Source of the DNA: Methanothrix sp.
Lineage (GTDB): Archaea > Halobacteriota > Methanosarcinia > Methanotrichales > Methanotrichaceae
Length of the DNA: 20,076 bases
Reading direction: 5' to 3'
Assembly (NCBI GenBank): GCA_037128175.1
Contig: JBAXWY010000049.1
Span: forward strand, 1 to 20,076
Shown here: piece after piece, positions 1,773 through 20,076 of the stretch
Layout: each line of letters begins with the position of its first letter
How positions within the stretch are numbered: position 1 is the stretch's first letter
Notes under the pieces: model-generated
What the model was told of the DNA's origin: nothing
The model's input: only the letters and a program-made list of their open reading frames with translations
Databases searched by the model: none
Translations under genes and position numbers: made by a program

Positions 1773-1848
1773 AATTTATCCATTTGCTGATCCGGTATAT
1801 GAAAACCTTGCGAGGGGACACAAAAACTCAAAATGATTACCTTTGTGC

Positions 1849-2100: not shown

Positions 2101-2110
2101 AATATTTAAT

Positions 2111-3040: not shown

Positions 3041-3108
3041 GCAATTAATCTACGAGTATATAAATAGATGCAAATTCATCTGTTTTGCGATAGCAGGGGC
3101 ATGAGACA

Positions 3109-3762
3109 ATGCTCAATGAAAAACCTAAATCTAATTTGAATTTCATATCCTGCAAACACCAATTAGAAATATATAAAAATTATAAAATATATAGTTCCGT
3201 TCTCCTCCTTGTAATAACTTACGGTACGCTTTTTATCTTTTGGGATTTGCTGACACAATACGATACTGCTCTTTTTCTCGAAATCTGCGAAGATAGAATT
3301 CCTGCTATCGAATCTTTTTTTGTTCTATGGACAAATGGAGGGGCTTCTCTTTTTATATGTTTTATAATTATATTTCTATGGCTAAAAGGAGAAAAAAGAC
3401 CGGCGATTTATCTAGCATTGGGATTGATAGTAGATACGATTCTGGTTTATACCCTCAAGACAATGATCCACCGGCCCAGGCCATATGAAGTCCTATCCAT
3501 AATGCCACTTGAACTGGTAGATAATTTTAGAAGCTTACCATCTGGACATACTTCGACAGCTTTTTTATCTGCCATGATATTATCAAAATTTTATAGCAAA
3601 TATATGGTTGTTTTTTTTGTCATTGCAGCATCTATAGGTTTCTCGAGAGTATACATAGGTGTTCATTATCCACTTGACGTGATAGTTGGGGCAATAACCG
3701 GCAGTTTGGTGGGCATTTTGATGGTAGATCTCTTGGATCGCTTCGATTACTCAAGGAAATGA
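3109..3762 (+). CDS. PAP2-family membrane phosphatase (lipid/polyprenyl-phosphate phosphatase)
   Basis: All three PAP2 motifs present: KTMIHRPRP, PSGH and SRVYIGVHYPLDV. Confidence 0.92.
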   Translation: MLNEKPKSNLNFISCKHQLEIYKNYKIYSSVLLLVITYGTLFIFWDLLTQYDTALFLEICEDRIPAIESFFVLWTNGGASLFICFIIIFLWLKGEKRPAIYLALGLIVDTILVYTLKTMIHRPRPYEVLSIMPLELVDNFRSLPSGHTSTAFLSAMILSKFYSKYMVVFFVIAASIGFSRVYIGVHYPLDVIVGAITGSLVGILMVDLLDRFDYSRK

Positions 3763-5042: not shown

Positions 5043-5248
5043 CGCACCACCAAATAAAATTTATAAACTAATATCATGACCAATATGATCAAATAGATTC
5101 TCAAAGCCAGAAGAGATGCTTTGACCAGGGGCGTCATGTGCAAGCGGGGCTGGCTGTACTTATGGTTGATCTCTTTCACCTTGCCAATCCACTCTTGGAC
5201 CATATTTTTCCCCACATGTCCCTCACTTTTTTCGTTTGCACTGGTCAC
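5039..5248 (-). CDS. small single-pass membrane protein in the metal-transporter operon
   Basis: 69 aa with a C-terminal hydrophobic helix. Its start and stop overlap both neighbours (translational coupling). Confidence 0.75.
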   Translation of the reverse strand: MTSANEKSEGHVGKNMVQEWIGKVKEINHKYSQPRLHMTPLVKASLLALRIYLIILVMILVYKFYLVVR

Positions 5249-6525
5249 TAGAAGACCTCCGGGAACAGCACGCTCAGAGCGTATAGTGTGGAAAGGATGA
5301 TTATCATGAGGATAATCGAAAAGCCCAAAACATTCTGAAACAGCGTATTCTTGTATTTCCCCATAAGCTCTTCGCTGTTCAGCAGCACTATTAGGAAGAC
5401 CAGGGCAGCAGGGAGGAGCGTGACGGCAATTACCTGCACAAATAGAGTTATGAGGACTAATGGCGCTCCTGGAAGCAGCACGATTATACCGGCACCAAGT
5501 AAGCTCAGGAAATAGAATGCATAGAACATGGGTGCTTCCGAAAGCTTGTTGTTAATAGAGTGCGCCCATCCAAGCACCTCACCCATCGCCCACGAACTTG
5601 CTAAGGAGATGCATATAGCACCCAGCAATCCTGCATCGAATAGCCCTATGGCCAGGGCCGTGCCGACTAGTGGTTGGCTTCCAATGATTGCTCGGGCGGC
5701 ATCTGCCGCGCTTTCTATATCGGTTCCACCCGGTTTGAATAACAAAGATCCTGTGAGAATTATGCAGAACACTGCCACCAGGATGGTGAAAAGGGCTCCT
5801 ATGGCAGTGTCGAGCTTCCCAAACGGAATATCTTTTTCAGTCATGCCTTTATCCACGACGGAACTCTGCTGGAAGAAGATCATCCAGGGAGCTATGGTCG
5901 TTCCGATGTTGGCCATCAAGAAAAAGAAGACCTCACCATTAAATCCATAAGGGAATGCTGGCATCAATCCGCCCATAACCTGGTTGTAATCCGGTCTTAC
6001 GATAAGTGCGGCAGGAATGTAGATCAGGTTCAAAGTACAGAATAGAAGAACTATCTTTTCCCAGGTCCAGTACCGACCATACATAACGATGGCGATCATC
6101 AGGGCTGAAACGCTGATCACCGTTAACAATGGGGGGACACCGAATATATTCAGTGCCGCAGTCATTCCGATGAATTCTGTGACCAGAGTAAGAAAATTCA
6201 CAATACCAAGGTCGATCAGAGAGAACCAGCCCCAAAATGGCCCGAAAGCATCGAATATGGCCTCAGCATGCCCCCTCTTGGTGACAGCACCGAGCCTCAC
6301 GGTCATCTCCTGAACCACATAAGCTATTGGGCCTAACAATATTACAAACCAGATAAAACTAAAACCGAACTTGGCCCCGGTGGCAGCATAGGTTGTAATT
6401 CCGCCGGCATCATTGTCGGCAATCATCACGATTATGCCCGGACCGGCAAGCGCTAGGTAAAGGCTTAACCATTTTATTAGTCTGCGATATTTATAGAAAA
6501 GACTGGCCCAAAACTCCAATGTCAT
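5248..6525 (-). CDS. NRAMP-family divalent cation transporter, NRMT (Mg2+) type
   Basis: TM1 motif GPG...ADNDAGG (DAGG rather than DPGN), QEMTVRLG, TM6 GTTIAPW, many TM helices. ATG at 6525 is preceded by GGAGAG and preferred over the 6594 start. Confidence 0.88.
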   Translation of the reverse strand: MTLEFWASLFYKYRRLIKWLSLYLALAGPGIIVMIADNDAGGITTYAATGAKFGFSFIWFVILLGPIAYVVQEMTVRLGAVTKRGHAEAIFDAFGPFWGWFSLIDLGIVNFLTLVTEFIGMTAALNIFGVPPLLTVISVSALMIAIVMYGRYWTWEKIVLLFCTLNLIYIPAALIVRPDYNQVMGGLMPAFPYGFNGEVFFFLMANIGTTIAPWMIFFQQSSVVDKGMTEKDIPFGKLDTAIGALFTILVAVFCIILTGSLLFKPGGTDIESAADAARAIIGSQPLVGTALAIGLFDAGLLGAICISLASSWAMGEVLGWAHSINNKLSEAPMFYAFYFLSLLGAGIIVLLPGAPLVLITLFVQVIAVTLLPAALVFLIVLLNSEELMGKYKNTLFQNVLGFSIILMIIILSTLYALSVLFPEVF

Positions 6526-6649
6526 CTCTCCGGGTTGTCTAATGCAGATCTCATGCTTTATCAAGATTTCGGTGTATATCCATCTTCTAATCAATTATGT
6601 TGGCAAACTACCAATCAAATGCATAAATACCAAGCAAATACCTGAATAG

Positions 6650-6666
6650 ATAAGCTTTTATATAGT
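6650..6666. promoter_or_regulatory. candidate archaeal TATA box in the divergent NRMT/Lrp intergenic region
   Basis: TAAGCTTTTATATAG, about 55 bp upstream of the Lrp ATG and readable on both strands. Confidence 0.4.
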
Positions 6667-6718
6667 ATCTTGGTACAACATTGATAAATGCCATAATTTA
6701 GGAGAAAATCAGATAAAC

Positions 6719-7183
6719 ATGGGCAATAGATCTGTGTTGGATGAAATCGATTCCAATATTCTTAAACTTCTCAAGCAAAATTCTCGAATGAGTTATCTAG
6801 AGATGTCTCGCCGCATGAACATATCAGATGCAACGGTACAATTCAGAATTAAACGGCTGAAAGAGCATGGAATCATAAAAAAGTTTACAATAACAGTAGA
6901 CCCTGCGTCAATCGGCTATGTAGTGGCGGTTATAATGCTCGTACAGATAGATGCTGATAAACATGACGCCGCTAAAAATGAGCTTTCAAAGATCCCCCAA
7001 ATCTCGGAAATCTATAGTGTGCTAGGAGAATACGACCTATTTCTCAAAGTCTATGCCAGAAGCCTTGAAGAACTCAATGAATTGATTAACGATAAGATAA
7101 GATCTATCGAGGGTATTGAGGATCTTCTCGAGATTGTTATCGTTGAGAGGGTAAAAGAAGAGTCATTCTCTAATTGTAGCTGA
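6719..7183 (+). CDS. Lrp/AsnC-family transcriptional regulator
   Basis: N-terminal HTH LDEIDSNILKLLKQNSRMSYLEMSRRMNISDATVQFRIKRL..GII; RAM domain IYSVLGEYDLFLKV. Confidence 0.94.
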   Translation: MGNRSVLDEIDSNILKLLKQNSRMSYLEMSRRMNISDATVQFRIKRLKEHGIIKKFTITVDPASIGYVVAVIMLVQIDADKHDAAKNELSKIPQISEIYSVLGEYDLFLKVYARSLEELNELINDKIRSIEGIEDLLEIVIVERVKEESFSNCS

Positions 7184-8137
7184 TTTTACCAGTTCGTATA
7201 ATGCCTCGTTTACGGGAACCTCTATCTTATGCTTTTTCGCCCGGCGAATGATGTAGCCGTTTATGGAATCAATCTCAGTCATCCTACCCTTTAACACATC
7301 CTGGAGCATGCTGGAGGTATTGCCGGATGTCTTTTCGGCTACGGAATAAACCATTTTCCTAACGCTCATCTCATCCCTCTTTATGCCTTCCTTTGCGGCA
7401 ACGTTCACGGCTTCCTTGACCGCGCCCTGCACAGTGTTTTTGAGGAAAGAGGATAAAACAATTCCGTTCTCCCGGCGAGTTAATGCCGTTATAGGGTTAA
7501 TCACGGAGTTGACGAAGAGCTTGCTGTATTGATGCTCCTTAAAATCCGGGGCATATTCCAACTCAAAGCCCTTCTCCAAGAACCTATCCATCATAAATTT
7601 TTTCTTATCCTCGCCGATTTTATCCTCTAGAATGGTTTTTCCCTTTCCTTTAAGCTCCACCGTGCCGTCCTCTGAGAGCTTGACTCCCAGAGCGGTGATG
7701 CCTTCCAATACTTGAGAATCGGGCAGATCAAGCTCATTAAAGACTTCCCTATTTCCCATGCCGTTCATCAACAATATGAAGTGGGCGTTCTTCAGCCGCC
7801 CTTGCAAGAGGCCAGACTTTCTCAATTCATCGCAGACACCGGGCAGAGAGTATGTCTTAACGCATACTAATACGATCTCCGGACAAAAATCGGATGCTTT
7901 CAGGTCATCAAGGCCTGTAAAGCAGTGTTTGAACTTCAAAAGCTTTCTCTCTTCGGGAAGATATATCTGCAGGCCGATATCTTTTATTCCATTTATATGG
8001 CTCTTTCTTCCCAGGAGAGCCACGTTTTCGATTTTAATTCCATTTAAATCGCAAGGGTCTGAGAGAAGATATCCCATGAATGAGCCAATGGCTCCCGCCC
8101 CATAAATCAAGACATCTGCCATTTTCACATCAATCAT
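7163..8137 (-). CDS. panE: 2-dehydropantoate (ketopantoate) 2-reductase
   Basis: Rossmann GAGAIG, VCVKTY, LMNGMG, KLFVNSVINPITAL, SSMLQDV..GRMTEIDSINGYI. Confidence 0.93.
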   Translation of the reverse strand: MIDVKMADVLIYGAGAIGSFMGYLLSDPCDLNGIKIENVALLGRKSHINGIKDIGLQIYLPEERKLLKFKHCFTGLDDLKASDFCPEIVLVCVKTYSLPGVCDELRKSGLLQGRLKNAHFILLMNGMGNREVFNELDLPDSQVLEGITALGVKLSEDGTVELKGKGKTILEDKIGEDKKKFMMDRFLEKGFELEYAPDFKEHQYSKLFVNSVINPITALTRRENGIVLSSFLKNTVQGAVKEAVNVAAKEGIKRDEMSVRKMVYSVAEKTSGNTSSMLQDVLKGRMTEIDSINGYIIRRAKKHKIEVPVNEALYELVKSATIRE

Positions 8138-8182
8138 TTCTTCCTATAAAAATCTCTTCCGGCGTAGAACTGATAATTCTGC

Positions 8183-8197
8183 AAAAAAATAAAAAAA
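8183..8197 (-). terminator. oligo-T terminator-like tract downstream of the cupredoxin gene
   Basis: AAAAAAATAAAAAAA on + reads as T7-A-T7 on -, about 20 bp after the stop at 8215. Confidence 0.5.
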
Positions 8198-8214
8198 GGA
8201 TTAAGCGGCCAGGC

Positions 8215-9576
8215 CTACACATTGAGCTGGTAGGCGTAACCGGCCTGGAAGTTCTTGTAATCCGAGAACGTGAACCCGCTGCCATCTATGGCGATGTTGT
8301 GATACTCATTTCCCGGAACATTGATTGTCACTGTACCGTCGGGCTCTCCCGTCATTCCCTCGGTGGCCTGATAGCTGCCATCGACATAGACATTATACCC
8401 TCGCAGCCAGGCTGAGCTGATGGTGACTGCCGCGAAATTGTAGACGGGCTGGGCAGGAGGCTGGTAGGGCACTACATCTATTACTATCACGTTGCTGGGC
8501 TGTCCGGCAATATTGAAGAACAACTGATGCTGCCCCACCTCATCAGCATAAAATCCTATCTGGTTGTAGGGATTGAAGTAGTAGCTGTTCATATCCAGAT
8601 TTCCGTCCGGATAAATCTCATAGAGATAGCCATAACCTCCGGCTGAAGATGTGGTAATCATGTTCAGCATAGAGCCCAAAGGAACCATGGCATACTGAGT
8701 CCAGCTGGAGGGGCCTGATATCCAGAGAGAGTTTATGCCGGTGCTAAGAGCATAGGTCTGATACTGGGCGTAGGACACCGCTTTTTGCGTGGAGCCGAAG
8801 TAGAGCATGGCAGGCTCCACCCCCTTCAAATCGATTTTAGTAGGAGCGGTGAGCTGATCTACTGGAGCCTCGGAGGTAGAACGATAGTACTTAGAGAACT
8901 TCTGCAAAGCAACCTGACTGGAAGCTGTGCTTGAATCCTGGCCGGTTGCCAGACCGGATACTTGGCCTAATGACTGGCCGGCGCTCTGGTCTATTGCGGG
9001 ATTGGACAAGAGCGGCAGGCCGCTAACCCCGGTTGTCCGCGTTTCGGACTGCAATTTTGCAGACTTCACCAGCTCGCTTGAGCTGAGGGGCTTTTCGCTC
9101 CAGGATGCAGATTTTCCTCCTTTTGAGCCTGCATTTTCCAATCCAGATTGCAATCCAGAAGATGAAGAATCCTGCAAAGCGGCACTTCCCGTTACCGTGA
9201 TCGTCCCTTGCATGCCGGGGTGAATGCTGCAGTGATAGCCGTAGCTGCCGGGAGTTTTGAAAGTGAAGTCGAACTTCTTTCCTGGATTTAGCACACCTGA
9301 ATCGAATAAGCCTTTAATATCACTGGTAACAGAATGCTGTACACCATCCTGATTATGCCACTCTACTTTCGTTCCAACAGGCATGGTCAAAGTGGATGGC
9401 TGAAATAAGCTGTCCTTGATATTTATCGTGGTTGCAGAGCCGGATGGATCGTCAACCTGATTGAGTTTCACACCACCGAAATTGTACCCAACCTGGCTGT
9501 CGAGCTTTTTTTCGGACACAGCGCCCGATAAGCTGATCAGCATTATCAGGATCAATATTGATAGACACCTTTTCAT
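8215..9576 (-). CDS. secreted cupredoxin (plastocyanin/azurin-like) domain protein with Ser/Gly-rich linker and beta-rich C-terminal domains
   Basis: Signal peptide MKRCLSILILIMLISLSGA; FQPSTLT..VGTKVEWHNQDGVQHSVT...YHCSIHPGMQGTITV carries the type-1 Cu ligands H, C, H, M. Confidence 0.85.
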   Translation of the reverse strand: MKRCLSILILIMLISLSGAVSEKKLDSQVGYNFGGVKLNQVDDPSGSATTINIKDSLFQPSTLTMPVGTKVEWHNQDGVQHSVTSDIKGLFDSGVLNPGKKFDFTFKTPGSYGYHCSIHPGMQGTITVTGSAALQDSSSSGLQSGLENAGSKGGKSASWSEKPLSSSELVKSAKLQSETRTTGVSGLPLLSNPAIDQSAGQSLGQVSGLATGQDSSTASSQVALQKFSKYYRSTSEAPVDQLTAPTKIDLKGVEPAMLYFGSTQKAVSYAQYQTYALSTGINSLWISGPSSWTQYAMVPLGSMLNMITTSSAGGYGYLYEIYPDGNLDMNSYYFNPYNQIGFYADEVGQHQLFFNIAGQPSNVIVIDVVPYQPPAQPVYNFAAVTISSAWLRGYNVYVDGSYQATEGMTGEPDGTVTINVPGNEYHNIAIDGSGFTFSDYKNFQAGYAYQLNV

Positions 9577-9714
9577 AGACTAAACCCCCATTTCTTCTTA
9601 GATACGCATCTATAAGAATATATATTTTTTGTGGGAAAAATGTTATATAACGCTACAAAAATACTATGAGCCGCAACACATAGCACCGGCTCATCGTCCT
9701 TTAGAATAATAGCT

Positions 9715-11007
9715 TCACTCTTCCGGCTCATCCCGGAAGATGGTCTGCTCCCTTCCCGGCCCCACCGAGACGGCAGAAATGCAGTTATCCAGCGGCTCAA
9801 TATAGAGTAGCTCCTCCAGCCGCTCAACATAAGCACGGGCATTGGCCGGCAGATCATCATACTCTTTGACTTCGGTTATATCCTCAGTCCAACCAGGCAT
9901 GTCCTCATAAATGGGCTTGCATCTGGCCAGGTCCAATGTGCTCTCCGGAGGATAGCCGAGCTCCTCGCCATCGAGCGTATAGCCGACGCAAATTTTTATG
10001 GGATTAATGCCTGTGAGCACATCCAGTTTGGTTAGAGCCAGCTCCGTGTAGCCGTTCAGGTGTACGGACTTCAGGCCCAGGACAGCATCAAACCAGCCGC
10101 AGCGTCTGGCCCTGCCCGTTGTCGTACCATACTCTGCACCCTTCTCTCGCATCATCACGCCCAGAGCATCTTTTAGCTCCGTGGGCATGGGACCTTCTCC
10201 GACGCGGGTGATGTAGGCCTTGATCACGCCGACCACGTTGTCCACCATTACCGGGCCAACGCCTAAGTTGGCGCAGGCGCTTCCCGCGGTAGTGAAGCTG
10301 GAGGTCACGAACTTCTGCGTGCCGTGGATGACATCCAGGAATGCTCCCTGAGCGCCTTCGGCCAGAACGCACTTGTCCTCGATGAGAGCTATGTTGATCT
10401 CACGCGAGACATCCGTCACCTTGTCCTTCAGGCGTTTTCCGATCTCCAGATACTCATCGATGTAGGGCGCATACCTGACCACCGTGGGGTCGCCGCCCAT
10501 GTCGGCAATGGCTTTCTCCTTGGCCGGACCGATCTCTTTGAGCTTGGCCTCCAGCAGAGCCGGGTCGGTGAGGTCTCCCATCTGCACCTCCTCGCGAGCG
10601 ACCTTATCCACGTAGGCAAACCCAATGCCACGGTTGGTGGTGCCGATCTTCTCCGTCCTGGCCTTCTCACGTAGCCCGTCGAGCTCAATGTGATAGGGCA
10701 TGATGATGGTCGTCTTGGCGTCGATGCCGATATCGACCTTGATGCCCTCCGATTCCAGGGACTGAATCTCGCTCCACAGGACACGGGGGTTGAGCACCAC
10801 GCCCGGACCGATGAGCAGCCTTCTGCCAAAGATGGCGCCGCTGGGAACCAGATGCAGCTTGTATTTCTTGCCGCCTACTACCACGGTATGGCCGGCGTTG
10901 TCGCCGCCCTGGAAGCGAACCACAACATCGTAATTTTCGGCCAGCAAATCAATAACCTTGCCTTTGCCTTCATCACCAAACTGTGCACCGGTGAGTATTG
11001 TAAACAT
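9715..11007 (-). CDS. purA: adenylosuccinate synthetase
   Basis: GAQFGDEGKGK, RFQGGDNAGHT, IGTTNRGIG, EGAQG, EYGTTTGRARRCGWFD, TKLDVL. ATG at 11007 (MFTILTG) preferred. Confidence 0.97.
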   Translation of the reverse strand: MFTILTGAQFGDEGKGKVIDLLAENYDVVVRFQGGDNAGHTVVVGGKKYKLHLVPSGAIFGRRLLIGPGVVLNPRVLWSEIQSLESEGIKVDIGIDAKTTIIMPYHIELDGLREKARTEKIGTTNRGIGFAYVDKVAREEVQMGDLTDPALLEAKLKEIGPAKEKAIADMGGDPTVVRYAPYIDEYLEIGKRLKDKVTDVSREINIALIEDKCVLAEGAQGAFLDVIHGTQKFVTSSFTTAGSACANLGVGPVMVDNVVGVIKAYITRVGEGPMPTELKDALGVMMREKGAEYGTTTGRARRCGWFDAVLGLKSVHLNGYTELALTKLDVLTGINPIKICVGYTLDGEELGYPPESTLDLARCKPIYEDMPGWTEDITEVKEYDDLPANARAYVERLEELLYIEPLDNCISAVSVGPGREQTIFRDEPEE

Positions 11008-11017
11008 GGAGCTAAGG

Positions 11018-11911
11018 TTAGCGACCACGTAGATAACAATTTTGATGCACATGGCTTGCGATAGCTGCCGTCACATCCACGCCCAGGGCTTCGAAGATGC
11101 CCTTTCCCGAAGGCGTTCCATTCACCTCGATGACGGTGAGGCCGCGCTCCGTCTCCAGGAGATCCACGCCGCAGTAGACGGTGCCCACCGCCTTGGCCGC
11201 CTTGGCCGCCAACTCCTCCAGCTCCTTCGTTACAGGACAGGCTACCGCTCGTCCGCCCCGGGCCAGGTTGCTGATCCACTGGCCGGGAGGGGCGAGGCGA
11301 TGAATGGCGCCCAAAACTCTGCCGTCCACCACAAAGGCCCGGATGTCGCGGGGAGTAACGAGGGCGATGAACTCCTGCAGGTAGACCTGCCCCTGTTTTT
11401 CCAGTATGCTTTCCAGCCGGGCCTGGTCCAAATCACTGCCGTCCTCCAGAAGGATGATGTCTCTGCCCTTGTAGCCGAAGAGGGGCTTGGAGACTGCCTT
11501 TTTAAAATCGTGCACGGCTCTCTTGGCCTCTTTGAAGCTGGTGGTGACAGCAGTCCTGGGAGTGGCGACCCCGGCATCCTGCAAAGCTCGGGAGGTGGCG
11601 AACTTGTTGGCCGCTCTAGCTATGGCCTGGGGCGGATTGATGACGGTGATTCCCTTTTCCTGGAGGGCCTGCAAGACCTCAAAGCGGAAGGCTACGTCGC
11701 TCGCACCCCTTCGGCCCAGGTCCCGCACCACTATGGCGTCCAGATTGAGGAGATCGATTCCGGCGCAGCTAAAAGATTGAATGCTGTTGATGCTGGCCAG
11801 GAGGTCCGAGAAGTTCAGGAAAAATGCGTCCATGCCTTTTGCAGAGAAGGAGGCGAGGAGAGCCTGGGCTGTCCAATCCAGGGGGTCTGAAACAATGATG
11901 GCAACGCGCAT
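11018..11911 (-). CDS. mptN: RimK-family ATP-grasp ligase, probably tetrahydromethanopterin:alpha-L-glutamate ligase
   Basis: ATP-grasp motifs ANKFAT, KPLFGYKG, YLQEFI, DIRAFVV, WISNLARGG, GVDLL and IEVNGTP. The N-terminal SDPLDWTA and VRDLG resemble the Methanosarcinales MptN type; the exact substrate is inferred. ATG at 11911. Confidence 0.75.
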   Translation of the reverse strand: MRVAIIVSDPLDWTAQALLASFSAKGMDAFFLNFSDLLASINSIQSFSCAGIDLLNLDAIVVRDLGRRGASDVAFRFEVLQALQEKGITVINPPQAIARAANKFATSRALQDAGVATPRTAVTTSFKEAKRAVHDFKKAVSKPLFGYKGRDIILLEDGSDLDQARLESILEKQGQVYLQEFIALVTPRDIRAFVVDGRVLGAIHRLAPPGQWISNLARGGRAVACPVTKELEELAAKAAKAVGTVYCGVDLLETERGLTVIEVNGTPSGKGIFEALGVDVTAAIASHVHQNCYLRGR

Positions 11912-11937
11912 GAGCTGGTTTTGGGCGAGCGGATATA

Positions 11938-12672
11938 TCACGATTGCCTCTCAGTGGTTGCCGATAAGCTGCCGATGTATTGCCGATAAAATGCCGATAA
12001 CGAGTAAGCCCGCCCCCGCCGGGATGGGTCGGCCACCTCCAGCCAGCCGTCACCCACCCAGTATTTGAGAAGGTTTCGGACCATGCGCTCAGAAAGGCCC
12101 AGCTCGGCAGCTACCTCAGGAGCAGTGATGCGATCCTGACTTGCAAAGAGGCACAGCACTACCCGCGCCCGGTGGTCCAGGCGGCGCAGAGCTTCGGGCT
12201 TCGCCGGGTGGCCCTCGGCCCCGCATCTTTCCGCCTTAAGTCGAACTGCCTCGAAGATGGCGTTCTGGCCCTCCCGGTAAGGTGTGGGCCTGGCTCTGGG
12301 GCCATATTCTACCAGAGCATGCAGCCTCTTGATCAGCTCCTCGGTGAGGGGCTTTTTCTTCCTGGCCCACTCCTCCACGCAGAGGAGAGCATTCCAGTAA
12401 TTGCGAACCTCGGAGACATCCCTCTTTCTGCCTTCGATCTCGGTTTTTTCGTCGTTGATGACGGCTTTTGCCTCCTCAAGAGTCAAGCGGTTGCCCTCGA
12501 TAAAGGTGGAGAAGTGGGAGGATCGCACACGAGCGCGAGCACGTAGCGCGGCCTCAGCCGAAGGCGAGAGCGGCATGCGGTCCACTAAAGCACGCGCCGC
12601 CTCGATCTGCATCAGGCCGCGGGCGATGGCAAGGGTGAGGGTGAAGCGGGGGGACCAGATGGGGGATGGCAT
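11938..12672 (-). pseudogene. Fic-family protein with C-terminal HTH, carrying an in-frame deletion of the catalytic Fic core (pseudogene or non-catalytic variant)
   Basis: Fic N-terminal part with STFIEGN inhibitory motif, EVRNY and LIKRLHAL..YREGQNAI joins directly to FEAVR...ITAPEVAAELGLSERMVRNLL (HTH). No HPFxDGNGR motif. Confidence 0.75.
11958..12001. repeat. four 11-bp-period direct repeats (core TGCCGAT) at the 3' end of the Fic gene
   Basis: ttgccgataag / ctgccgatgta / ttgccgataaa / atgccgataac. Confidence 0.75.
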
Positions 12673-12696
12673 TTCGAATTAGTTCCTTGATCCATT

Positions 12697-12885
12697 TCAA
12701 GAAAGGATCAGTGTTTCAAAAAGAGTTAAAGATATCTTTTGATTTTGAAATAAAATCTCGAATCTCTTCTTGGCAAGCTGGTTGCTCTCTTCCTCTATCT
12801 CGCGCTCTGCCTTCTCGTGATCAATGCCCTTCGCCTTTTCTATGGCCTCTTCCAGAAGAGACCGCAGTTTGATCTTTTCAATCAC
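12697..12885 (-). CDS. small hypothetical helical protein or gene remnant
   Basis: GTG at 12885 after GGAG; AT-richer than its neighbours; no recognised family. Confidence 0.35.
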   Translation of the reverse strand: MIEKIKLRSLLEEAIEKAKGIDHEKAEREIEEESNQLAKKRFEILFQNQKISLTLFETLILS

Positions 12886-12920
12886 AAAGACAACTCCACT
12901 TGGCGAATCTAGCCGAGATC

Positions 12921-13409
12921 TTATCTCCCAAACCTCAGCACACATCTCCCCTCTCCCCGGCAGATCCTCTCCTCCCTCTCGAATCCGATCTCCCCACCCT
13001 CACCAGAAAACTCGCTCGCCCACACCGAGTTTTCCACCCGGCAGATCAGATCGCTCACCTTCTCCGAAAGATCCCCGCGCCCTGACTTTATCATCAAGTC
13101 ATGCCAGGGGCACCTCTTGACGATCACGACAAAGCCCTCACTATGCGGCTCTATCTCATACTCGAAGCCCTCCAGGTCCAGGCGGGCACAGAGCGCAGGC
13201 TCCAGCCCCGCAAGGCCCCCTGGCAAATGCATCATGCCCTTCAGGGCGCGGGCCTGAATCTTGGGCAGAACCTTCCAGACGGCCTCGTCCAGCCGCAAGG
13301 CCTCATCAAAGCCCAGCCTCTCCTCGACCTTCATAAACCACAGCCCGTCCACAGCCGTGTAGGACCGCCGGAAGTACTCCGCCTTCTGCTCCTCTGTCAA
13401 GCGGGTCAT
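12921..13409 (-). CDS. DUF6125-like protein (ATC-hydrolase/V4R-like fold, Cys ligands)
   Basis: YTAVDGLWFMKVEERLGFDEALRLDEAVW, RCPW, ICRVE, ICRGEGRCVLRF. ATG at 13409 overlaps the TPR gene stop (ATGA). Confidence 0.75.
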   Translation of the reverse strand: MTRLTEEQKAEYFRRSYTAVDGLWFMKVEERLGFDEALRLDEAVWKVLPKIQARALKGMMHLPGGLAGLEPALCARLDLEGFEYEIEPHSEGFVVIVKRCPWHDLMIKSGRGDLSEKVSDLICRVENSVWASEFSGEGGEIGFEREERICRGEGRCVLRFGR

Positions 13410-15388
13410 GCTCCCGGCCTCCCATCCGGCCTTTCCTGCGGCGCTGCCGCTCCAGCCTTTCGCCCCGCCTTGAAGATGGCCTTGCACGACTGCATGGAGC
13501 GGTGGCATTTTTCCGCCTGTTCTCGCATCTCATGGGCGCCCGGATGGCCCTCTCTCTCCAGCTCTTCCGCCCTGGCCCTGTAGATCTTAAAGGCCTTCTT
13601 GTAAGCCTTGAGCGCCTTTTTGCTGCACTCCTCTTTATCCAACACCTCCGAAAAAGTGACATAAGCAAAGGCCAAATCCCTGAGAATATCGGCGTGCTCC
13701 AGGGGGGCCGTTTCCAGCGTGTAATACTGCATGGCCCGCTCGCAGGCATCGATGGCTTTTTGGCAGTTTTCCGCCTTGTCCTCCATTTCAGCCAACGTGA
13801 TGAAGCTGTAGCCCAGATTTTTGAGAGCATCGGCGTGCTCTGCCGGGCTCGTTCTTTCATAAATTCTGATGGCGGACTGGCAGGCCTGTATTGCCCGCCG
13901 GCAGTTCTCCTTTTTTTCCTCGACCTCAGCCAGAGCCGAATAAGCCGCCCAGAGCAAGATCTGCGCCTCAGCATGCTCCTCTGGGTAATTGGGAACATCA
14001 TAGATCTGCAAAGCCTCAAAAGCCGCAGATATGGCCTTCTTGCAGTCCTCGGCTTTGGCCTCTGCCGATATTTCCATATCTGCCAGCATTATGGCCGTCA
14101 TGGCCAGATCCTTGCAGCAGGAAGCGATTTGCAGCGGCTGGGCGGCCCAGATCCTGTAAGAATACAGCCGATCCTCGCATGCCTGCAGAGCCAGAGCGCA
14201 GTTCTCGGCCCGGTACTCGATATCGGCTAAGGTAAGATAGGCCAGCCAGAGACTGCCTTTGGCTTCGCCATAATCCTCGGGTGAGTCTTCCAGAGAAAAG
14301 ACAGAGAGAGCCTTTTGCGCCGCCATGATGGCCTTCATGCAATTGCTGGTTTTATCCACTCTCTGCCCCTGAGTAAGATAGACATTGGCCAGATTATTTT
14401 GAACCGTTGCATAGAGCCTGGGGAACTCTTCCAGAGAATAGATCTGCAGAGCATTGCTGTAAGCTTCCAGTGCAAGCCGGCAGTTCTCCAGGCACCCTTG
14501 CTCGCCCCCTTCTTCTGAAACTTCATCTTCTTCGGCCAAAGCGAGGTAAGCATTACCCAGATTGTTCTCTAAGGCGGCGTAGGCTTGCGGCTGCTCTTCC
14601 TTTGTTCTGTAGAGCAGTGCCTCTCTGCAGGCAGCAAGAGCCAGCCGGCAGTTTCCGGCCTTGTCCTCGGTCTCGGAAAGGGAGAGATAGGCTATGGCCA
14701 GATTATTTTTCATAGCTGCATATTGCATGGGACTACGGTCCGGAGAATAAACGAGGATGGCTTCCTGATAAGCTAGAATGGCTTTTTTGCAGCTTCTTGC
14801 ATGATCGGCAGCATTTGCAGCCTGGGCCAGCGTCAGATGGCAGCTTCCCAGGTTGGCCATCGTTGCCGCAAATTGCAGGGGGCTATCTTTAAGATTGAAA
14901 ACGCGTAGCGCAGCTATGCAGGCCTCTACTGCCCTTTTGCCGTTTTCTGGCCGGCTCTCCAGCTCCGCCAGTTTTCGGTAGGCACCGCCTAGATCTTTTT
15001 GAATGGAAGCATGCTCTTCCGGAAAGGCGGTTAAAGAAAAGAAGGGCAGGGATTCTTCCCAGTAAAGGGTAGACTGCTTGAGGTTTTTGGCTCGATTTGC
15101 GATGTCCGCCAGAGCGGCATAGGCGAAGCCCAGGCCTCTCATGACTTTGGCGCGAGGAATTGGGTAGCGCTCCAGAGTATAAACGAGCAGAGCTTTTTCA
15201 TAGGCTGCAATGGCGCATTCGCAGATCAACAAATCATTTTTTTGCTTGATTATTTCCAGGCAATTGTCGCCCATCTTTCTTTGTATGTTGCTCTGCTGCA
15301 CATGGTCCATCTCGAAGGCCAGCATCTTCTCGTATACGATCAGGGCCTTTTCATATTCTGAATTGAGATGCGTTTTTTTGCTCTGCAA
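13406..15388 (-). CDS. tetratricopeptide-repeat protein (about 12 helical repeats)
   Basis: Repeating units such as A...YQEAILVY....PMQYAAMKNNLAIAY..L and A...YSNALQIY....PRLYATVQNNLANVY; GGAGG upstream of the TTG start. Confidence 0.88.
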   Translation of the reverse strand: MQSKKTHLNSEYEKALIVYEKMLAFEMDHVQQSNIQRKMGDNCLEIIKQKNDLLICECAIAAYEKALLVYTLERYPIPRAKVMRGLGFAYAALADIANRAKNLKQSTLYWEESLPFFSLTAFPEEHASIQKDLGGAYRKLAELESRPENGKRAVEACIAALRVFNLKDSPLQFAATMANLGSCHLTLAQAANAADHARSCKKAILAYQEAILVYSPDRSPMQYAAMKNNLAIAYLSLSETEDKAGNCRLALAACREALLYRTKEEQPQAYAALENNLGNAYLALAEEDEVSEEGGEQGCLENCRLALEAYSNALQIYSLEEFPRLYATVQNNLANVYLTQGQRVDKTSNCMKAIMAAQKALSVFSLEDSPEDYGEAKGSLWLAYLTLADIEYRAENCALALQACEDRLYSYRIWAAQPLQIASCCKDLAMTAIMLADMEISAEAKAEDCKKAISAAFEALQIYDVPNYPEEHAEAQILLWAAYSALAEVEEKKENCRRAIQACQSAIRIYERTSPAEHADALKNLGYSFITLAEMEDKAENCQKAIDACERAMQYYTLETAPLEHADILRDLAFAYVTFSEVLDKEECSKKALKAYKKAFKIYRARAEELEREGHPGAHEMREQAEKCHRSMQSCKAIFKAGRKAGAAAPQERPDGRPGA

Positions 15389-15854: not shown

Positions 15855-16098
15855 TCAGGCACCTAACAGATCTCCCACCCAAAGCATTCGGTTCCTCTGG
15901 GGACTATTGCCAAAGGCCTGGAAGACCTTGCCGTCGGCAGTGACCAAGTGGCCATCCAGCGCCTCGGCCAGAGCCAGGTAAAGACAATCGTAGACGCTGC
16001 GTTTGGTCCCGATAGCCATATGAAATGCTTCCTCTCGGAAATTCTGAGATGGATAAGACCGGATAGGAAATGCGATTATTTTATTATGGAGATATCAT
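15855..16098 (-). pseudogene. vapC: VapC/PIN-domain toxin remnant lacking its N-terminal half
   Basis: Manual translation: ...IIAFPIRSYPSQNFREEAFHMAIGTKRSVYDCLYLALAEALDGHLVTADGKVFQAF...LWVGDLLGA*. The ATG coupled to the upstream antitoxin (16098) is out of frame and stops after 4 codons; no N-terminal xxDxS motif. Confidence 0.8.
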
Positions 16099-16171: not shown

Positions 16172-16323
16172 CGAGGCGAAAGCCTTTAAATCACTACGAA
16201 ATTAAGAGAGTAGGTAAGAAACTGTTGCTTGTTGACGGCTATGGCGATCATCGTCTGAATTGAGGTTATGATAAGAGGGATGAATGGATAGCTGCAGCTT
16301 TAGATATTCTTTTTTAATGTAAC
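16172..16323 (+). repeat. about 150-bp dispersed repeat, copy 1 (BRE/TATA-like start, T-tract end)
   Basis: Aligns by eye with 18486-18641 at roughly 85% identity. Confidence 0.9.
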
Positions 16324-16324
16324 G

Positions 16325-16416
16325 GGTTTACGAGTTTCACCACAAAGCACAATAGTCGTCTCCGTTCGTTCGTCCTCCGTGCGCTCAGTGTCTGCGGTGG
16401 TGGTAGTCCGTAAACC
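16325..16416. mobile_element. MITE/REP-like element copy A with GGTTTACG...CGTAAACC terminal inverted repeats
   Basis: Perfect 8-bp inverted termini, internal CACCACAAAG/TCTGCGGTG arms, internal sequence shared with 19826-19884 and 18892-18944. No transposase in the window. Confidence 0.55.
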
Positions 16417-16646
16417 ATTGGTTATAACCAGTGGCTAACGACGTTTTCACCACAGAGACACCACAGTTCACAGAGAACGCACAGAGCGACTAACTAACAA
16501 CTGGATAAACATAGTAACCTGAGGTTAGCAATTGGAAATAGCGAAGAGCCATAAGTATCTTAGGTAAACACCATCTCCCTCGCACAATGGCTCTTTTTAA
16601 GCGCCAAGAGTATAATCTTTGAGCCCTAACGCATATTGGGATCATT

Positions 16647-16832
16647 ATGCAAATTAGAGCAATATATGAGCATGAGGTCTTGAAGCCACTGGGAAAGCTG
16701 GATCTGAAGGATGGCGAAGAAGTGGAACTAACGCTAACGAAAAAGATATCAGAGAGGACTTTTGGTTTAATCACGCTGGATCATGATATCATTGAAGAGA
16801 TCATTGAGGATACAGAATATGGATCCTGGTAA
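16647..16832 (+). CDS. AF2212-like (DUF104) VapB-type antitoxin
   Basis: MQIRAIYEHEVLKPLGKLDLKDGEEVEL matches the IxAIYExGVLKPL..L.L.EGE.V pattern; TTTTTAAG TATA-like box about 50 bp upstream. Confidence 0.85.
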   Translation: MQIRAIYEHEVLKPLGKLDLKDGEEVELTLTKKISERTFGLITLDHDIIEEIIEDTEYGSW

Positions 16833-16885
16833 TCTTCGGAATAGTCGAATAAATAGCATAGCAACAAATGACCGAGATTTTTTCA
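16826..16885 (+). pseudogene. collapsed VapC/PIN toxin remnant
   Basis: Overlapping start-like CTG GTA ATC TTC (L/M-V-I-F) is followed within about 25 bp by INSIATNDRDF, the PIN C-terminal xATxDxDF motif; nearly the whole gene is missing. Confidence 0.6.
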
Positions 16886-16956
16886 TAATTCGTAGCCAAC
16901 CATGGTTTGATTATCCAGCTACTATTATTAACCGCAGAGGACCATAGGATTATAAT

Positions 16957-17190
16957 ATGTTAGCAGAATACATTAACGCTGCTTTAGAGCGGGCCGAATA
17001 TGAGATCCTGGAAGATGATGAGCCTAAGCCTTACTATGCCCATGTGCAAGAACTTCCCGGAGTATGGGCAACTGGTAAGACCCTTGAGGATTGCCGCAAT
17101 GAGCTTATTTCGGTTATAGAGGGATGGATCGCTTTGAGGCTGAAGTTAGGAGATCCAATACCTACTATCGGCAGCCATACGATAAGATGA
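16957..17190 (+). CDS. hicB: HicB-family (UPF0150) antitoxin, no hicA partner
   Basis: MLAEYINAALERAEYEILED...YYAHVQELPGVWATGKTLEDCRNELISVIEGWI..RL..GDPIP. The 3' end overlaps an MKISYDPK stub (DUF2283-like start) at 17187. Confidence 0.87.
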   Translation: MLAEYINAALERAEYEILEDDEPKPYYAHVQELPGVWATGKTLEDCRNELISVIEGWIALRLKLGDPIPTIGSHTIR

Positions 17191-17224
17191 AAATATCATA
17201 CGATCCCAAGATGGAATTATTATT

Positions 17225-17503
17225 ATGTCTCCTGATGAGGGCAAGAAAGTCGCACCAAACATTGCAGAAAGAACCTATGGCTTAATTAAGCTCGACGCCA
17301 GGTCGATAGATGAGATTATAGAAGATACAAAATATGGGTCACAAAGTGAGTTAGACGATCTCATTAAAGAGGAAGAGGTAGCCAACTGGGTGATATTTGA
17401 AAGAGCCGTGGAGGATCTGGATCTAACTGATGAGGATCTTCTGGCTTTGGAGAAAGTACGGGAGACTGTGTGGAAAGAAGAAAAGAAGAACCTGGGATTA
17501 TAG
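17225..17503 (+). CDS. chimeric antitoxin-like protein (AF2212-type tail fused to a second acidic antitoxin-like tail)
   Basis: IAERTYGLIKLDARSIDEIIEDTKYGS is paralogous to ISERTFGLITLDHDIIEEIIEDTEYGS of 16647-16832; the second half is LDLTDEDLLALEKVRETVWKEEKK. Confidence 0.6.
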   Translation: MSPDEGKKVAPNIAERTYGLIKLDARSIDEIIEDTKYGSQSELDDLIKEEEVANWVIFERAVEDLDLTDEDLLALEKVRETVWKEEKKNLGL

Positions 17504-17532
17504 CACCCCAGAGTGTAATAATCATACCACGG

Positions 17533-17676
17533 GTGATCAAAACGGACGCGAATGAGAGTGCATTTAATCCCATAAAAGAAGTAGAAAAGAAAAGCGCCGT
17601 TGATAAATTTTATGGAATGATGAAAATACCAAGAAAGCTTGCCGATGAGATAATTGACATGGAGATGTGGGATTGA
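17533..17676 (+). CDS. short antitoxin-like protein (degenerate AF2212/VapB-type)
   Basis: From GTG 17533: ...KKSAVDKFYGMMKIPRKLADEIIDMEMWD*, an acidic VapB-like tail with a TTGA overlap into a toxin-like stub. Confidence 0.5.
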   Translation: MIKTDANESAFNPIKEVEKKSAVDKFYGMMKIPRKLADEIIDMEMWD

Positions 17677-17738
17677 TTTTATCTCAAATATCTCGTCTCG
17701 AAAAACATGAATTTAGGATTAAGTAGAGGAGTCAAGAA

Positions 17739-17891
17739 ATGGCAAGGCCGACTAAACTTGGATTGGTATTTGAGGGTGCTGAAGCTGAAGAATTCCTCAA
17801 GAACGAAAACGGCATAGTTTTTACATCCGCTCAACTGGCTTTTTTCAGGAAAGCGAGGAGAATTTACAGGGCTAATCGCAATAAATTCTGA
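17739..17891 (+). CDS. 50-aa antitoxin-like protein (type found upstream of GNAT toxins in methanogens; inferred)
   Basis: Below the ORF-track cutoff: MARPTKLGLVFEGAEAEEFLKNENGIVFTSAQLAFFRKARRIYRANRNKF*, GAGGAG RBS, TGATG overlap with a 22-codon stub (MAALSL...). Confidence 0.6.
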   Translation: MARPTKLGLVFEGAEAEEFLKNENGIVFTSAQLAFFRKARRIYRANRNKF

Positions 17892-17955
17892 TGGCAGCAT
17901 TAAGCTTAACAGAAAACGCAACCTCAGCATACAATTCATCGGAGATCTCCAACTC

Positions 17956-18264
17956 ATGAAAAAGAAATTCAGTGTTTTGGTTGAAAAGGACGAGGACGGC
18001 TACTTGGTAGCGAAAGTTCCAACCCTTCCCGGATGCCACACACAAGCAAGAAGCATGGACGATCTCCTGGAAAGAGCAAAAGAAGCGATCGAGGCTTATC
18101 TCGAAGCTTATACTGGATCAACAAAGGATCAGGGGATAGCAGAAAATCCACCAATTGGTGACAGAATGAAGATTCTGGAGAGCTACGTAGGCATAGTAAA
18201 GCTGAAGAAACCATTTACTCTTGAGGAGATCTTAGAGCTGGAGGAAGACAACTGGCTGTACTGA
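17956..18264 (+). CDS. hicB: HicB-family (UPF0150) antitoxin fused to a VapB-like C-terminal tail
   Basis: MKKKFSVLVEKDEDGYLVAKVPTLPGCHTQARSMDDLLERAKEAIEAYLE is canonical HicB; the tail YVGIVKLKKPFTLEEILELEEDNWLY overlaps a PIN-like start (L/M)AVLIDT at 18252. Confidence 0.8.
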   Translation: MKKKFSVLVEKDEDGYLVAKVPTLPGCHTQARSMDDLLERAKEAIEAYLEAYTGSTKDQGIAENPPIGDRMKILESYVGIVKLKKPFTLEEILELEEDNWLY

Positions 18265-18485
18265 TTGATACCAAGATTTCAAGCAAATAGTCGCCTCCGT
18301 CCGCTCCTCCGCCGCGAGCTTCTCGTGTCTGTAGTGGTGAATCGTTCGCAAAACACCAGTAGTCCCGTCCGTGGACAGCACGCCCAGATTAGCAGAGATC
18401 GCATCTTCGAACTCTCCAGGGTCGGGCGCGAGTGGAGCAGCGTTAGGGAGGTACGGCGCATCTGAAATCTCCGGGGAGCCGGATG

Positions 18486-18641
18486 CGAGGCGAAAGCCAT
18501 TTAAATCACTACCGAAATTAAGAAAGTACGTAAGAAATCAGTTGCTTGTTGACGGCTATGTCGGTCATCGTCTGAATTGAGGCCATGATAAGAGGGGATG
18601 ACTGGATAGCCGTGGCTGTAGATGTTCCTTTTTGATATAAC
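18486..18641 (+). repeat. about 150-bp dispersed repeat, copy 2
   Basis: Direct repeat of 16172-16323. Confidence 0.9.
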
Positions 18642-18705
18642 TATAAATATCAATTACTGAGACAACGAGTTTGAGCATACATGAGCCTGAGAGATTTAAA
18701 CCTGG

Positions 18706-18944
18706 GGTTTACGATTTTAACCACAAAGCGCACAAAGACGATTTAGCCGATTCGAAAACCCGAGTTTTAATTATCAAGCTACTATAATTAACCGCAGAGA
18801 CGTGAAATTTACCATATTATGCATATCTCCCTAATTCAACCAAAAAAAAAGCATGCGTGTGATCACAACCCATAATTTTCGTTTTTTTTTTTCTCTGTGC
18901 GTCCTCCGTGCGCTCTGCGACTCTGCGGTTAAATTACCGTAAAC
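18706..18944. mobile_element. MITE/REP-like element copy B
   Basis: Left end GGTTTACGATTTTAACCACAAAG; right end CTCTGCGGTTAAATTACCGTAAAC (about 24-bp imperfect inverted repeat). Internal 18771-18799 matches 16911-16939. Confidence 0.55.
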
Positions 18945-19132: not shown

Positions 19133-19408
19133 ATGATGAGTGCCATATCGGCAGATGATGCCGTCCCTATTGTCCGAAGGTCCCTGCAAAGAGAGATCGG
19201 CCTACTGGAAACGAAAAAAAGGCTGACACAAAAGGAGATCAAGGAATTCGAGCGCAAATACGGCAGGACTTCTGTAGAGTTCATGAGTGAGTTTGAGCAG
19301 GGAGAGCTTGGCGATTCACAGGATTGCTTCGAGTGGTGGGGACTACTGCGGGGAATGAGAGCGATTGAAGAAGAAATAATGAAAGCAAAAGCGGTGCTCT
19401 CCTCTTGA
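19133..19408 (+). CDS. TumA-like antitoxin (partner of DUF6516)
   Basis: IKEFERKYGRTSVEFMSEFEQGELGDSQDCFEW motif (FExKYGxxSxEF...GELGD...EW); TTGA overlap with the DUF6516 gene; TTTATTAA box upstream. Confidence 0.75.
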   Translation: MMSAISADDAVPIVRRSLQREIGLLETKKRLTQKEIKEFERKYGRTSVEFMSEFEQGELGDSQDCFEWWGLLRGMRAIEEEIMKAKAVLSS

Positions 19409-19791
19409 TTTTTGAATACTTCAAGGAAGTTGAACTACGACTAAAAAATGTAGAGATAATAGCCGATAAAAGCATCGATCTTAGAGAGTTTGGTGCAAAG
19501 GAAGGCATGCTCCGCGGAAGGCTGCTCTTTGTAGATGGATCGATGCTTGAGTTTATGGAGTATCTGCAGGAAGAGAACCGATTGAAGTACAGATTTCATC
19601 TAATGGATAAGGAAGGCAATATGGTCTTTAGATATGATAATGCGCCCCACCACAAAGATGTTTCGACTTTTCCGCATCACAAACATCTCCCAGGTAATGT
19701 CGCGGAATCGGATGATAAAGGCATTATGGATGTTTTAGATGAGATAGAAATATTGATGAGTAATGCCATAACGGCAAATAAAAAAACCTAA
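19405..19791 (+). CDS. DUF6516 / TumE-family toxin
   Basis: RGRLLFVDGSMLEFME...KYRFHLMD..GNMVFRYDNAPHH..VSTFPHHKH. Confidence 0.85.
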   Translation: MIFEYFKEVELRLKNVEIIADKSIDLREFGAKEGMLRGRLLFVDGSMLEFMEYLQEENRLKYRFHLMDKEGNMVFRYDNAPHHKDVSTFPHHKHLPGNVAESDDKGIMDVLDEIEILMSNAITANKKT

Positions 19792-20005: not shown

Positions 20006-20076
20006 TTGACAGAAATCAATCAGGCGATAGCTACCGAGCGCCAGGAGAATGATATCTCCGGGAAGATCATTGGCGC
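20006..20076 (+). CDS. GxxExxY-family protein, 5' end only
   Basis: TTG start after GGTG and a TTTTATAAG box: MTEINQAIATERQENDISGKIIG(A), matching the ENxISxxIIGAAIEVH start of this family. Only 23 codons visible. Confidence 0.55.
   Translation, partial: MTEINQAIATERQENDISGKIIG

Follow-up and report, generated by a model that had tools for sequence, protein, structure and literature searches.

Stacks of orphan immunity genes are known from type VI secretion (T6SS), contact-dependent inhibition (CDI) and Rhs systems, where they stand together with toxin fragments and have arisen by recombination and displacement. The chromosomal ccd of Erwinia chrysanthemi reportedly acts against the ccd of the F plasmid. 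Here, we describe a stack of orphan antitoxin genes at positions 16647-18264 of a 20,076-bp contig (C49, hereafter the window) of the archaeon Methanothrix sp., and compare it with these systems and with the eroded toxin-antitoxin (TA) loci of bacteria. In the accessible text of two surveys, orphan antitoxins are abundant in Klebsiella (PMC7192599) and E. coli (PMC10790755), and anti-addiction is the role usually proposed for them, without proof. For Photorhabdus, the accessible part of the report describes a two-step decay in which the toxin goes first, with 185 copies of toxin-only pseudogenes against 8 that are antitoxin-only (PMC13617665). Phages carry orphan antitoxin-like counter-defence genes in the case of DarTG1, according to the part of that preprint that is accessible (bioRxiv 10.1101/2024.07.11.602962). 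The assembly that holds the window comprises 2.96 Mb in 98 contigs and is 99.8% complete. All positions are those of the whole contig; G-numbers denote the Methanothrix genomes compared (G000 being the own genome) and L-numbers the loci taken from them and annotated.

The array consists of six co-oriented open reading frames (ORFs), O1 to O6, all on the plus strand, that are built from eight antitoxin modules and include no intact toxin. Pfam cut-offs were passed by three of them (O1, O2 and O6); O3, O4 and O5 gave no Pfam or NCBIfam match and were identified through DNA homology to parent operons in congeners, and NCBIfam offered no family for any of the six. The PIN profile PF01850 has 24 matches in the genome at E<=10, one of which lies in the contig (15921-16052, minus strand) and none inside 16647-18290. 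The HicA profile PF07927 has 19 genome matches, none in the contig, and tblastn with the two parental HicA proteins found no match in the contig either. An AF2212-like antitoxin is present as O1, and AF2212-type pieces in O3 and O4, with no full-length PIN gene adjoining, the toxin being reduced to the remnant behind O1 and to stubs of 11-35 nt elsewhere; HicB domains occur in O2 and O6 with no adjacent HicA; and the small gene overlapping a GNAT start, the mark of the GNAT pair, is not found as such, O5 being followed by a 22-codon remnant. An earlier note, made from the sequence alone, had described six co-oriented ORFs without a complete toxin, two hicB genes without hicA and chimeric antitoxins. 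The ORF list and the two profile searches agree with the first two statements; the chimeras were verified for O3 and O6 by mapping their junctions against the parents, and O4 is an in-frame chimera as well.

The segment 16560-18330 was searched by DNA against 40 relatives first and then against all 58 other genomes of the genus. It is a mosaic: its pieces have their matches, 83-96% identical, at separate sites in other genomes. Each piece traces to the antitoxin of an ordinary two-gene module with an intact toxin, while the toxins are missing or remnants in the array, so that by this measure the ORFs are orphan antitoxins; the parental toxins all pass Pfam cut-offs. The parents are an AF2212-like antitoxin with a 173-aa PIN for O1 (contig C126 of G016), a HicB with HicA for O2 (G012, G067), another AF2212-like antitoxin with a PIN and a 69-aa antitoxin with a PIN_2 for the first and second parts of O3 (G015 and G067; G012 and G062), a third AF2212-like antitoxin with a 170-aa PIN for the end of O4 (G012), a 50-aa protein with a 191-aa GNAT acetyltransferase for O5 (G012), an 80-aa HicB with HicA for the first half of O6 (G016:C126, G067), and a 92-93-aa antitoxin with a 144-aa PIN for its second half (G067). 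Eight toxin genes (four PIN, one PIN_2, two HicA and one GNAT) were thus lost or gutted. The first PIN suffered a 399-bp in-frame loss, five other toxins persist as 11-69 nt of their genes, and neither hicA remains.

O1 (16647-16832) is a complete AF2212-like antitoxin of 61 aa (PF01954, 58.2 bits, 1.1e-15), for which AF_2212 (2nwt, E=1.1e-5) was the sole match in a PDB search. The copy in G016:C126, with an intact 173-aa PIN downstream, matches it at 97% identity. Alignment to L011 showed that the remnant of this PIN (16783-16947, plus strand) is made of the first 8 codons joined in frame to the last ~13. The 399 bp lost (133 codons; L011 661-1059) were deleted at a junction, 16841|16842, for which there is no independent support. 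The resulting 54 codons lack the PIN core and gave no Pfam match. PINs of the O1 subfamily are broken in five of six cases by different lesions, namely a deletion in G000, a nonsense codon in G067, a frameshift in G017, a truncation in G062 and fragments only in G053; the G016 copy alone is intact. The G067:C1 lesion (L038 ~1775) is a TGC-to-TGA change at codon 36, and that of G017:C9 (L039 ~1700-1760) a 1-nt insertion at the codon of the first catalytic Asp, where an alternative upstream ATG keeps the ORF open. The O1-type PINs have nonsynonymous-to-synonymous ratios of 0.25-0.32, so the G017 and G067 lesions are recent and a comparison of toxin with antitoxin rates does not discriminate. O1 and its PIN remnant have a history separate from that of O2-O6. 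They lie outside the block shared with G016 (see below) and are linked to it by a short dispersed repeat (16899-16939). This 40-nt piece and a 67-nt piece upstream of O1 (16351-16417) are 480 bp apart here and directly adjoin at several G012 sites and in RNA contigs, which makes it look as if the O1 unit had entered a repeat by insertion or had recombined inside it.

O2 (16957-17190) holds a complete HicB-type (UPF0150) antitoxin domain (PF21748, 103.6 bits, 5e-30, profile positions 1-64 of 64). Homology to the G012 hicB-hicA parent stops near 17188, the last ~9 parental codons having been replaced and hicA being gone. A probable 8-codon 5′ stub of a DUF2283 gene (17187-17210, plus strand) overlaps the O2 stop; its alignment to L013, where the parent gene scores 4.6e-16 with PF10049, is weak because it is short.

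O3 (17225-17503) was resolved by alignments to L016 and L013 into two antitoxin pieces. The first (17232-17344) is an AF2212-like antitoxin without its first ~19 codons, with a new ATG start. The frame reads through the old antitoxin stop, so that 3-4 codons of the PIN start survive at 17334-17344. The second (17360-17503), joined in frame at ~17360, corresponds to the C-terminal half of the 69-aa antitoxin that partners a PIN_2 toxin. The toxins paired with the two parents score 5.8e-13 (PIN) and 5.2e-24 (PIN_2). O4 (17470-17676), assigned by DNA homology to its parents, is the weakest of the six ORFs. Its GTG start is the former start of the PIN_2 toxin, the first ~11 codons of which survive at 17470-17504 with a 34-nt overlap with O3, as in the parent. 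The middle segment has a homologue only in G016, one of the 58 other genomes of the genus, and the ORF ends (17588-17676) with the tail of a further AF2212-like antitoxin. From 17588 to 17687 the window is 94% identical to L013 (8967-8868), the match running 20 nt into the intact 170-aa PIN; the stub that remains of this toxin is 7 codons long (17667-17687, plus strand).

O5 (17739-17891) is a complete 50-aa protein, identified by DNA homology, of a family found directly upstream of GNAT toxins. The G012 homologue, identical at 46 of 50 residues, is followed by a 191-aa GNAT, and four of the six paralogues in the own genome adjoin a GNAT homologue, judged by coordinates. No Pfam, NCBIfam or PHROG model matched the family, and the ESM Atlas returned unnamed clusters only. 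Behind O5, alignments to L013 and L020 revealed the eroded 5′ remnant of the GNAT gene (17891-17959, plus strand), a 22-codon ORF whose stop overlaps the start of O6. The remnant measures ~190 nt in G062, 69 nt in the window and 12 nt in G016, which makes a deletion series. O6 (17956-18264) joins a HicB N-terminal domain in frame to a PIN-antitoxin tail (PF15919, HicB_lk_antitox, 35.9 bits, 9.7e-9, residues 5-57). The HicB part comprises codons 1 to ~50 of the 80-aa HicB and ends at ~18107, and 18115-18264 is the tail of a 93-aa PIN antitoxin; the parents are the hicB-hicA pair of L011 and L021 and the antitoxin-PIN pair of L013 and L021. The stub of the PIN that belonged to this tail (18261-18277, plus strand, aligned to L013 and L021) consists of the start position and 5 codons including the first catalytic Asp, and at 18277 the homology breaks into repeat sequence. 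The start codon of the PIN behind the 93-aa antitoxin (L013 17697-17715, L012, window 18261-18263) is ATG in G067 and CTG in G012, G016 and the window, so the seemingly intact G012 PIN may already lack a start.

The earlier note had proposed that toxins were repeatedly removed while antitoxins or their C-terminal tails stayed open, had suggested a search for intact parent operons and deletion junctions, and had read five toxin stubs by eye. The operons were found in congeners, confirmed with Pfam and their breakpoints mapped, and the mapped PIN, PIN_2 and GNAT remnants do align to toxin genes; repeated removal with retention of antitoxins or tails fits all of these junctions. As to the stubs, the PIN start joined to a PIN end behind O1 was correct and proves to be an exact internal deletion in frame; the MAALSL reading at 17891 was correct for the GNAT remnant, which is larger in G062; and the (L)AVLIDT reading behind O6, with a stop after it, was correct for the PIN start and its five codons. 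For the third, the position stands and the gapped reading MIFIDSNI does not, the letters being simply the first seven codons of the parent PIN. The second, a VIIDT with a 1-nt loss at ~17500-17530, is not supported: that segment lacks a homologue outside G016, and the true stub is the PIN_2 start at 17470-17504. Restoring one base to the supposed frameshift gives no PIN-like continuation. Two further stubs were added to the five, the PIN start inside O3 and the probable DUF2283 5′ end.

A second copy of the array is found in an independent assembly, on contig C241 of G016, which is collinear over 16946-18277, with identity at 1124 of 1192 aligned bases; the O2-O6 order and all old junctions recur there. 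It follows that the toxins had been lost, and O3 and O6 fused, before the two copies diverged. G062, too, has the O5-to-HicB adjacency. The two arrays differ by six indels, four in ORF sequence (195, 21, 87 and 96 nt, all multiples of three) and two outside ORFs (2 and 53 nt), and erosion is ongoing in both lineages. The synonymous difference per site (pS) between window and G016 is 0.116 in the array against 0.26 in the flanking housekeeping genes (p=3e-7). This hints at a recent exchange of the array between lineages, although C241 could be misassigned. At the orthologous locus of G012, the closest genome at purA (synonymous divergence, dS, 0.08; 75% complete), synteny ends at ~12105, which leaves no before/after comparison. 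The G012 RimK gene is as diverged as that of G016 (dS 0.31) despite the low value at purA, which suggests a possible recombination boundary inside the housekeeping block compared (8215-13508). A second antitoxin-rich eroded array was observed in another species (G062:C70; L020 1500-7000); it contains a DUF2283::AF2212-tail chimera, truncated HicBs, an internally deleted antitoxin, a truncated TumE and one intact antitoxin/PIN_2 pair.

We propose that the array is an eroded islet of TA cassettes whose leftovers are constrained and act in trans on incoming toxins, an explanation to which we give about an even chance. As the junctions show, recombination and deletion among neighbouring cassettes removed or gutted the eight toxin genes; the promoter-proximal antitoxin genes, or their C-terminal tails alone, stayed, and three became in-frame chimeras (O3, O4 and O6). 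The surviving ORFs have since remained open and under purifying selection. They would be made as proteins that act in trans, each module binding and neutralising toxins of the matching family that circulate in related Methanothrix, and for the GNAT type also on a virus, so that the array would blunt addiction or killing by incoming cassettes. By analogy with VapBC systems in general, the C-terminal tails would be the toxin-binding parts; DNA binding resides in the N-terminal part of other VapB antitoxins, a function not established for the families found here.

The first support for this proposal comes from the pattern of substitutions. Between the window and G016, the pooled O2, O3, O5 and O6 differ by 24 synonymous and 27 nonsynonymous changes over 206 and 757 sites, a nonsynonymous-to-synonymous ratio (pN/pS) of 0.31 (binomial p=4.2e-5 against neutrality). 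The two other sense frames gave 1.32 and 1.28, and one antisense frame gave 0.38 but contains 10 stops. Third codon positions account for 28 of the 51 differences. Individually, O3 shows 8 synonymous and 9 nonsynonymous changes (ratio 0.28) and the two halves of O6 ratios of 0.39 and 0.43, while neighbouring housekeeping genes have 0.13-0.25. The O5 comparison with G062 reaches a dS of 0.54 with a ratio of 0.11, both copies being toxin-less and having the right-hand junction in common; among toxin-less copies the O5 ratio is 0.05-0.11. These comparisons show purifying selection on the surviving ORFs since toxin loss. Neutral evolution of the antitoxins, which the earlier note had named as evidence for plain decay, was not seen, the low ratio being confined to the ORF frames.

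The rival that survives best is nevertheless plain two-step decay, in which the ORFs are undeleted leftovers without present function and the constraint is noise or gene conversion; we regard it as unlikely. It matches the bacterial pattern as far as the published accounts can be followed (PMC13617665, PMC7192599), and the same asymmetry runs through the genome. The own genome holds 11 full-profile hicB genes of the O2 type without stops, with a full-length hicA beside 4, fragments beside 4 and none beside 3. It also holds 10 AF2212-like genes, with a full PIN for 3, a fragment for 3 and none for 4. Across the genus, 39 AF2212-like matches were found, 33 of them evaluable (6 lacked a fetched locus); a full-length PIN accompanies 21 of the 33, a damaged one 7, none 4, and one runs off its contig. 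A genus-wide census that started from the toxins gave many rows with a single stop, which may be no more than the stop ahead of the true start. A PIN fragment without an antitoxin even adjoins the array, and deletions continue in both lineages. What stands against decay is a pN/pS of 0.31 in the annotated frame only, similar to that of the neighbouring housekeeping genes, the still lower O5 ratio over a long toxin-less divergence, and the four ORF indels that all preserve the frame. Conversion is disfavoured in particular, since the closest own-genome paralogues are 60-70% identical in protein and make a poor substrate for it.

Several points weigh against a trans-acting role and have to be set beside this evidence. 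Loss of the antitoxin before the toxin kills the cell, so the toxin goes first and orphans are expected without any benefit, as argued in the accessible part of the Photorhabdus report (PMC13617665). The selection test comprises 51 differences from what is essentially a single orthologous comparison, and conversion by intact paralogues could look like constraint. The N-terminal part of O4 has a ratio of 0.73, with no constraint seen over its 7 differences only. Antitoxin tails erode too: G016 is without the O4 tail, and the window has lost the tail of an 88-98-aa antitoxin kept in G016, plus 96 nt (32 codons) of O6. G016:C241 itself is a 3.4-kb contig from a binned genome that is 77% complete, and its species assignment is uncertain. 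RNA-library contigs count in favour of the proposal, within limits: those of one wetland metatranscriptome match 17576-17731 (across the PIN stub) and 17771-17915 without a difference, and two lake-water runs of one study contain a G016-like O6 chimera on contigs of mean depth 736 and 338, but such contigs show presence, not strand or transcription, with DNA carry-over possible. The array parts that they leave uncovered are no evidence of silence. Finally, four single-protein scans of viral contigs, able to detect close relatives only, found no relative of the O1-parent PIN, the PIN of the O6-tail parent or PIN_2, and one weak match of 22 residues to HicA.

A viral carrier was found for the GNAT family. 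On a 4.35-kb IMG/VR contig (L070 2795-3540), a related O5-type/GNAT pair (56% and 61% identity) lies beside head-tail adaptor and head-morphogenesis genes. Resident toxins bear on the second rival, retention of the ORFs for a non-defence role such as buffering distant resident toxins or regulating transcription, which we consider quite improbable. Roles of this kind have been proposed for orphan antitoxins in the accessible text of the bacterial surveys (PMC7192599, PMC10790755), and candidates for buffering exist. The GNATs of the own genome are 35-58% and its HicAs 29-64% identical to the lost ones (the nearest HicAs 64% and 41%), and its PINs ~30%. No close homologue of the lost PINs was found in the own genome, the best being 29-34% identical. 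Against this rival, an antitoxin gene lies alongside most of the related resident toxins, as judged by coordinates, and what the chimeras have retained of PIN antitoxins is the C-terminal tail rather than the N-terminal part. Retention by selection without a resident cognate toxin is thus what was found (pN/pS 0.31 and no close PIN), on a small sample.

The least tenable alternative, that the assembly merged repeats shared by similar cassettes and so created false chimeras, would suit a 98-contig assembly, a region full of dispersed repeats and paralogous cassettes and the uncorroborated 16841|16842 junction, but we hold it to be extremely improbable given the independent G016:C241 copy with the same order and junctions, the recurrence of the O5-to-HicB adjacency in G062, the RNA-library contigs that bridge 17687 without a difference and the O6-type chimera in a separate study; the mis-assembly that the earlier note had warned of is accordingly unlikely.

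To return to the trans-acting islet, its use as an immunity or anti-addiction cassette is plausible, the related GNAT pair on the viral contig being circumstantial evidence. The leftovers, chimeras included, are still constrained, which keeps the immunity idea alive, with a chance of roughly one in three. A stronger version, in which an antitoxin-only islet kept by selection and exchanged between lineages provides, through two-headed chimeras, broad-spectrum immunity against the addiction modules of cassettes and viruses, is tentative and on the unlikely side. If it were true, O6 would combine a HicA-binding domain with a PIN-binding tail and O3 would carry two PIN-binding tails, and the low pS of the array relative to the flanking genes would reflect a recent spread of the toxin-less array.

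The array is part of a TA islet rich in dispersed repeats that extends from ~15400 to the contig end, while 1-15388 is occupied by ordinary genes, including those for an Lhr-type helicase, Nramp, PurA and RimK (Pfam, 17 contig ORFs). No secreted polymorphic toxin or delivery genes were found among these 17 ORFs with Pfam, nor an integrase among the ORFs so scanned, attC sites not being specifically modelled. The repeats between cassettes are MITE-like hairpins (MITE, miniature inverted-repeat transposable element). Rfam and tRNA scans of the contig gave no match. The islet includes the antitoxin-less PIN 3′ fragment that flanks the array (15855-16052, minus strand; 65 of ~149 codons; PF01850 profile positions 72-114, 17.1 bits, over 15921-16052). 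Its relatives are open frames of ~149 aa, for example in G050 at 94% identity; the G067 copy has 2 stops and lies ~9 kb from purA. Directly upstream of O1 is a MITE-like palindromic repeat (16351-16555), characterized by BLAST and folding. BLAST against the own genome gave 60 matches, many of them one place matched on both strands; the plus-orientation rows alone give more than 30 places. It folds into a long hairpin (-63.8 kcal/mol, z -2.8) and matched no Rfam family. The repeat also occurs at 18819-18900 and at many other genome sites, and RNA-library contigs cover it deeply. MITE-like repeats border most cassettes in the TA islets of relatives, and they may drive the rearrangements of these islets. 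On either side of the array, at 16172-16351 and 18486-18737, stands a second dispersed repeat (~87-90% identity). Downstream, an apparently intact TumA-like/TumE pair was mapped to 19133-19791 (plus strand; Pfam TumE 87.8 bits), with NCBIfam scores of 78.4 for TumE and 25.4 bits for TumA, both under the cut-off. The G067 islet contains a TumA-like gene that is protein-identical to this copy and a near-identical TumE. The contig breaks off (20006-20074) in the start of a gene; its 135-aa relatives are seen again, complete or cut short, in the G012 and G067 TA islets.

The TA field asks whether orphan antitoxins still work or are junk, and to this the bacterial surveys, in their accessible text, contribute proposed roles only. 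With eight mapped toxin losses, known intact parents and a constraint that can be measured after the loss, the array is a compact natural test case, and in its natural chimeras the putative toxin-binding tails occur apart from the remainder of the antitoxin. It is also a record, at base resolution, of how a TA islet is remodelled through cassettes and dispersed repeats in a globally important methanogen. A literature search, with most subscription journals outside its scope, found no description of a stacked archaeal orphan-antitoxin array or of a natural in-frame antitoxin chimera.

Among the known systems, the canonical VapBC-like, HicAB and GNAT pairs are the source of every module, and no functional toxin of theirs is left in the array. 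The orphan immunity arrays of polymorphic-toxin systems share with it the stacking of immunity genes with toxin fragments; they lie downstream of a secreted-toxin system and serve against the toxins of neighbours, whereas the array is made of the parts of intracellular type II TA systems. The ccd locus of Erwinia chrysanthemi is similar in that a chromosomal antitoxin lacking a useful partner toxin could disarm the toxin of an element entering the cell, and differs in being a complete pair, shown by experiment, while the array consists of antitoxins only and is known from its sequence. The phage genes directed at DarTG1 resemble the role proposed here, a stand-alone antitoxin homologue working in trans against a toxin encoded elsewhere; as described in the accessible part of the preprint, the phage gene is an enzyme against host defence, whereas the array genes are chromosomal and would act by binding. 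The closest likeness is to the eroded TA loci of bacteria, in which, in the accessible text of the reports, the toxin also goes first and the antitoxin ORF persists, within islets of high turnover where truncation and deletion are the main lesions (PMC7192599, PMC10790755, PMC13617665). The array departs from these loci in being archaeal, in packing eight modules into 1.6 kb, in its three in-frame fusion ORFs and in a constraint that has been measured. Toxin-first erosion with recombination of a TA islet is thus a known kind of event, here unusually clear, dense and archaeal, and what is new is a stacked archaeal case with chimeric antitoxins under constraint.

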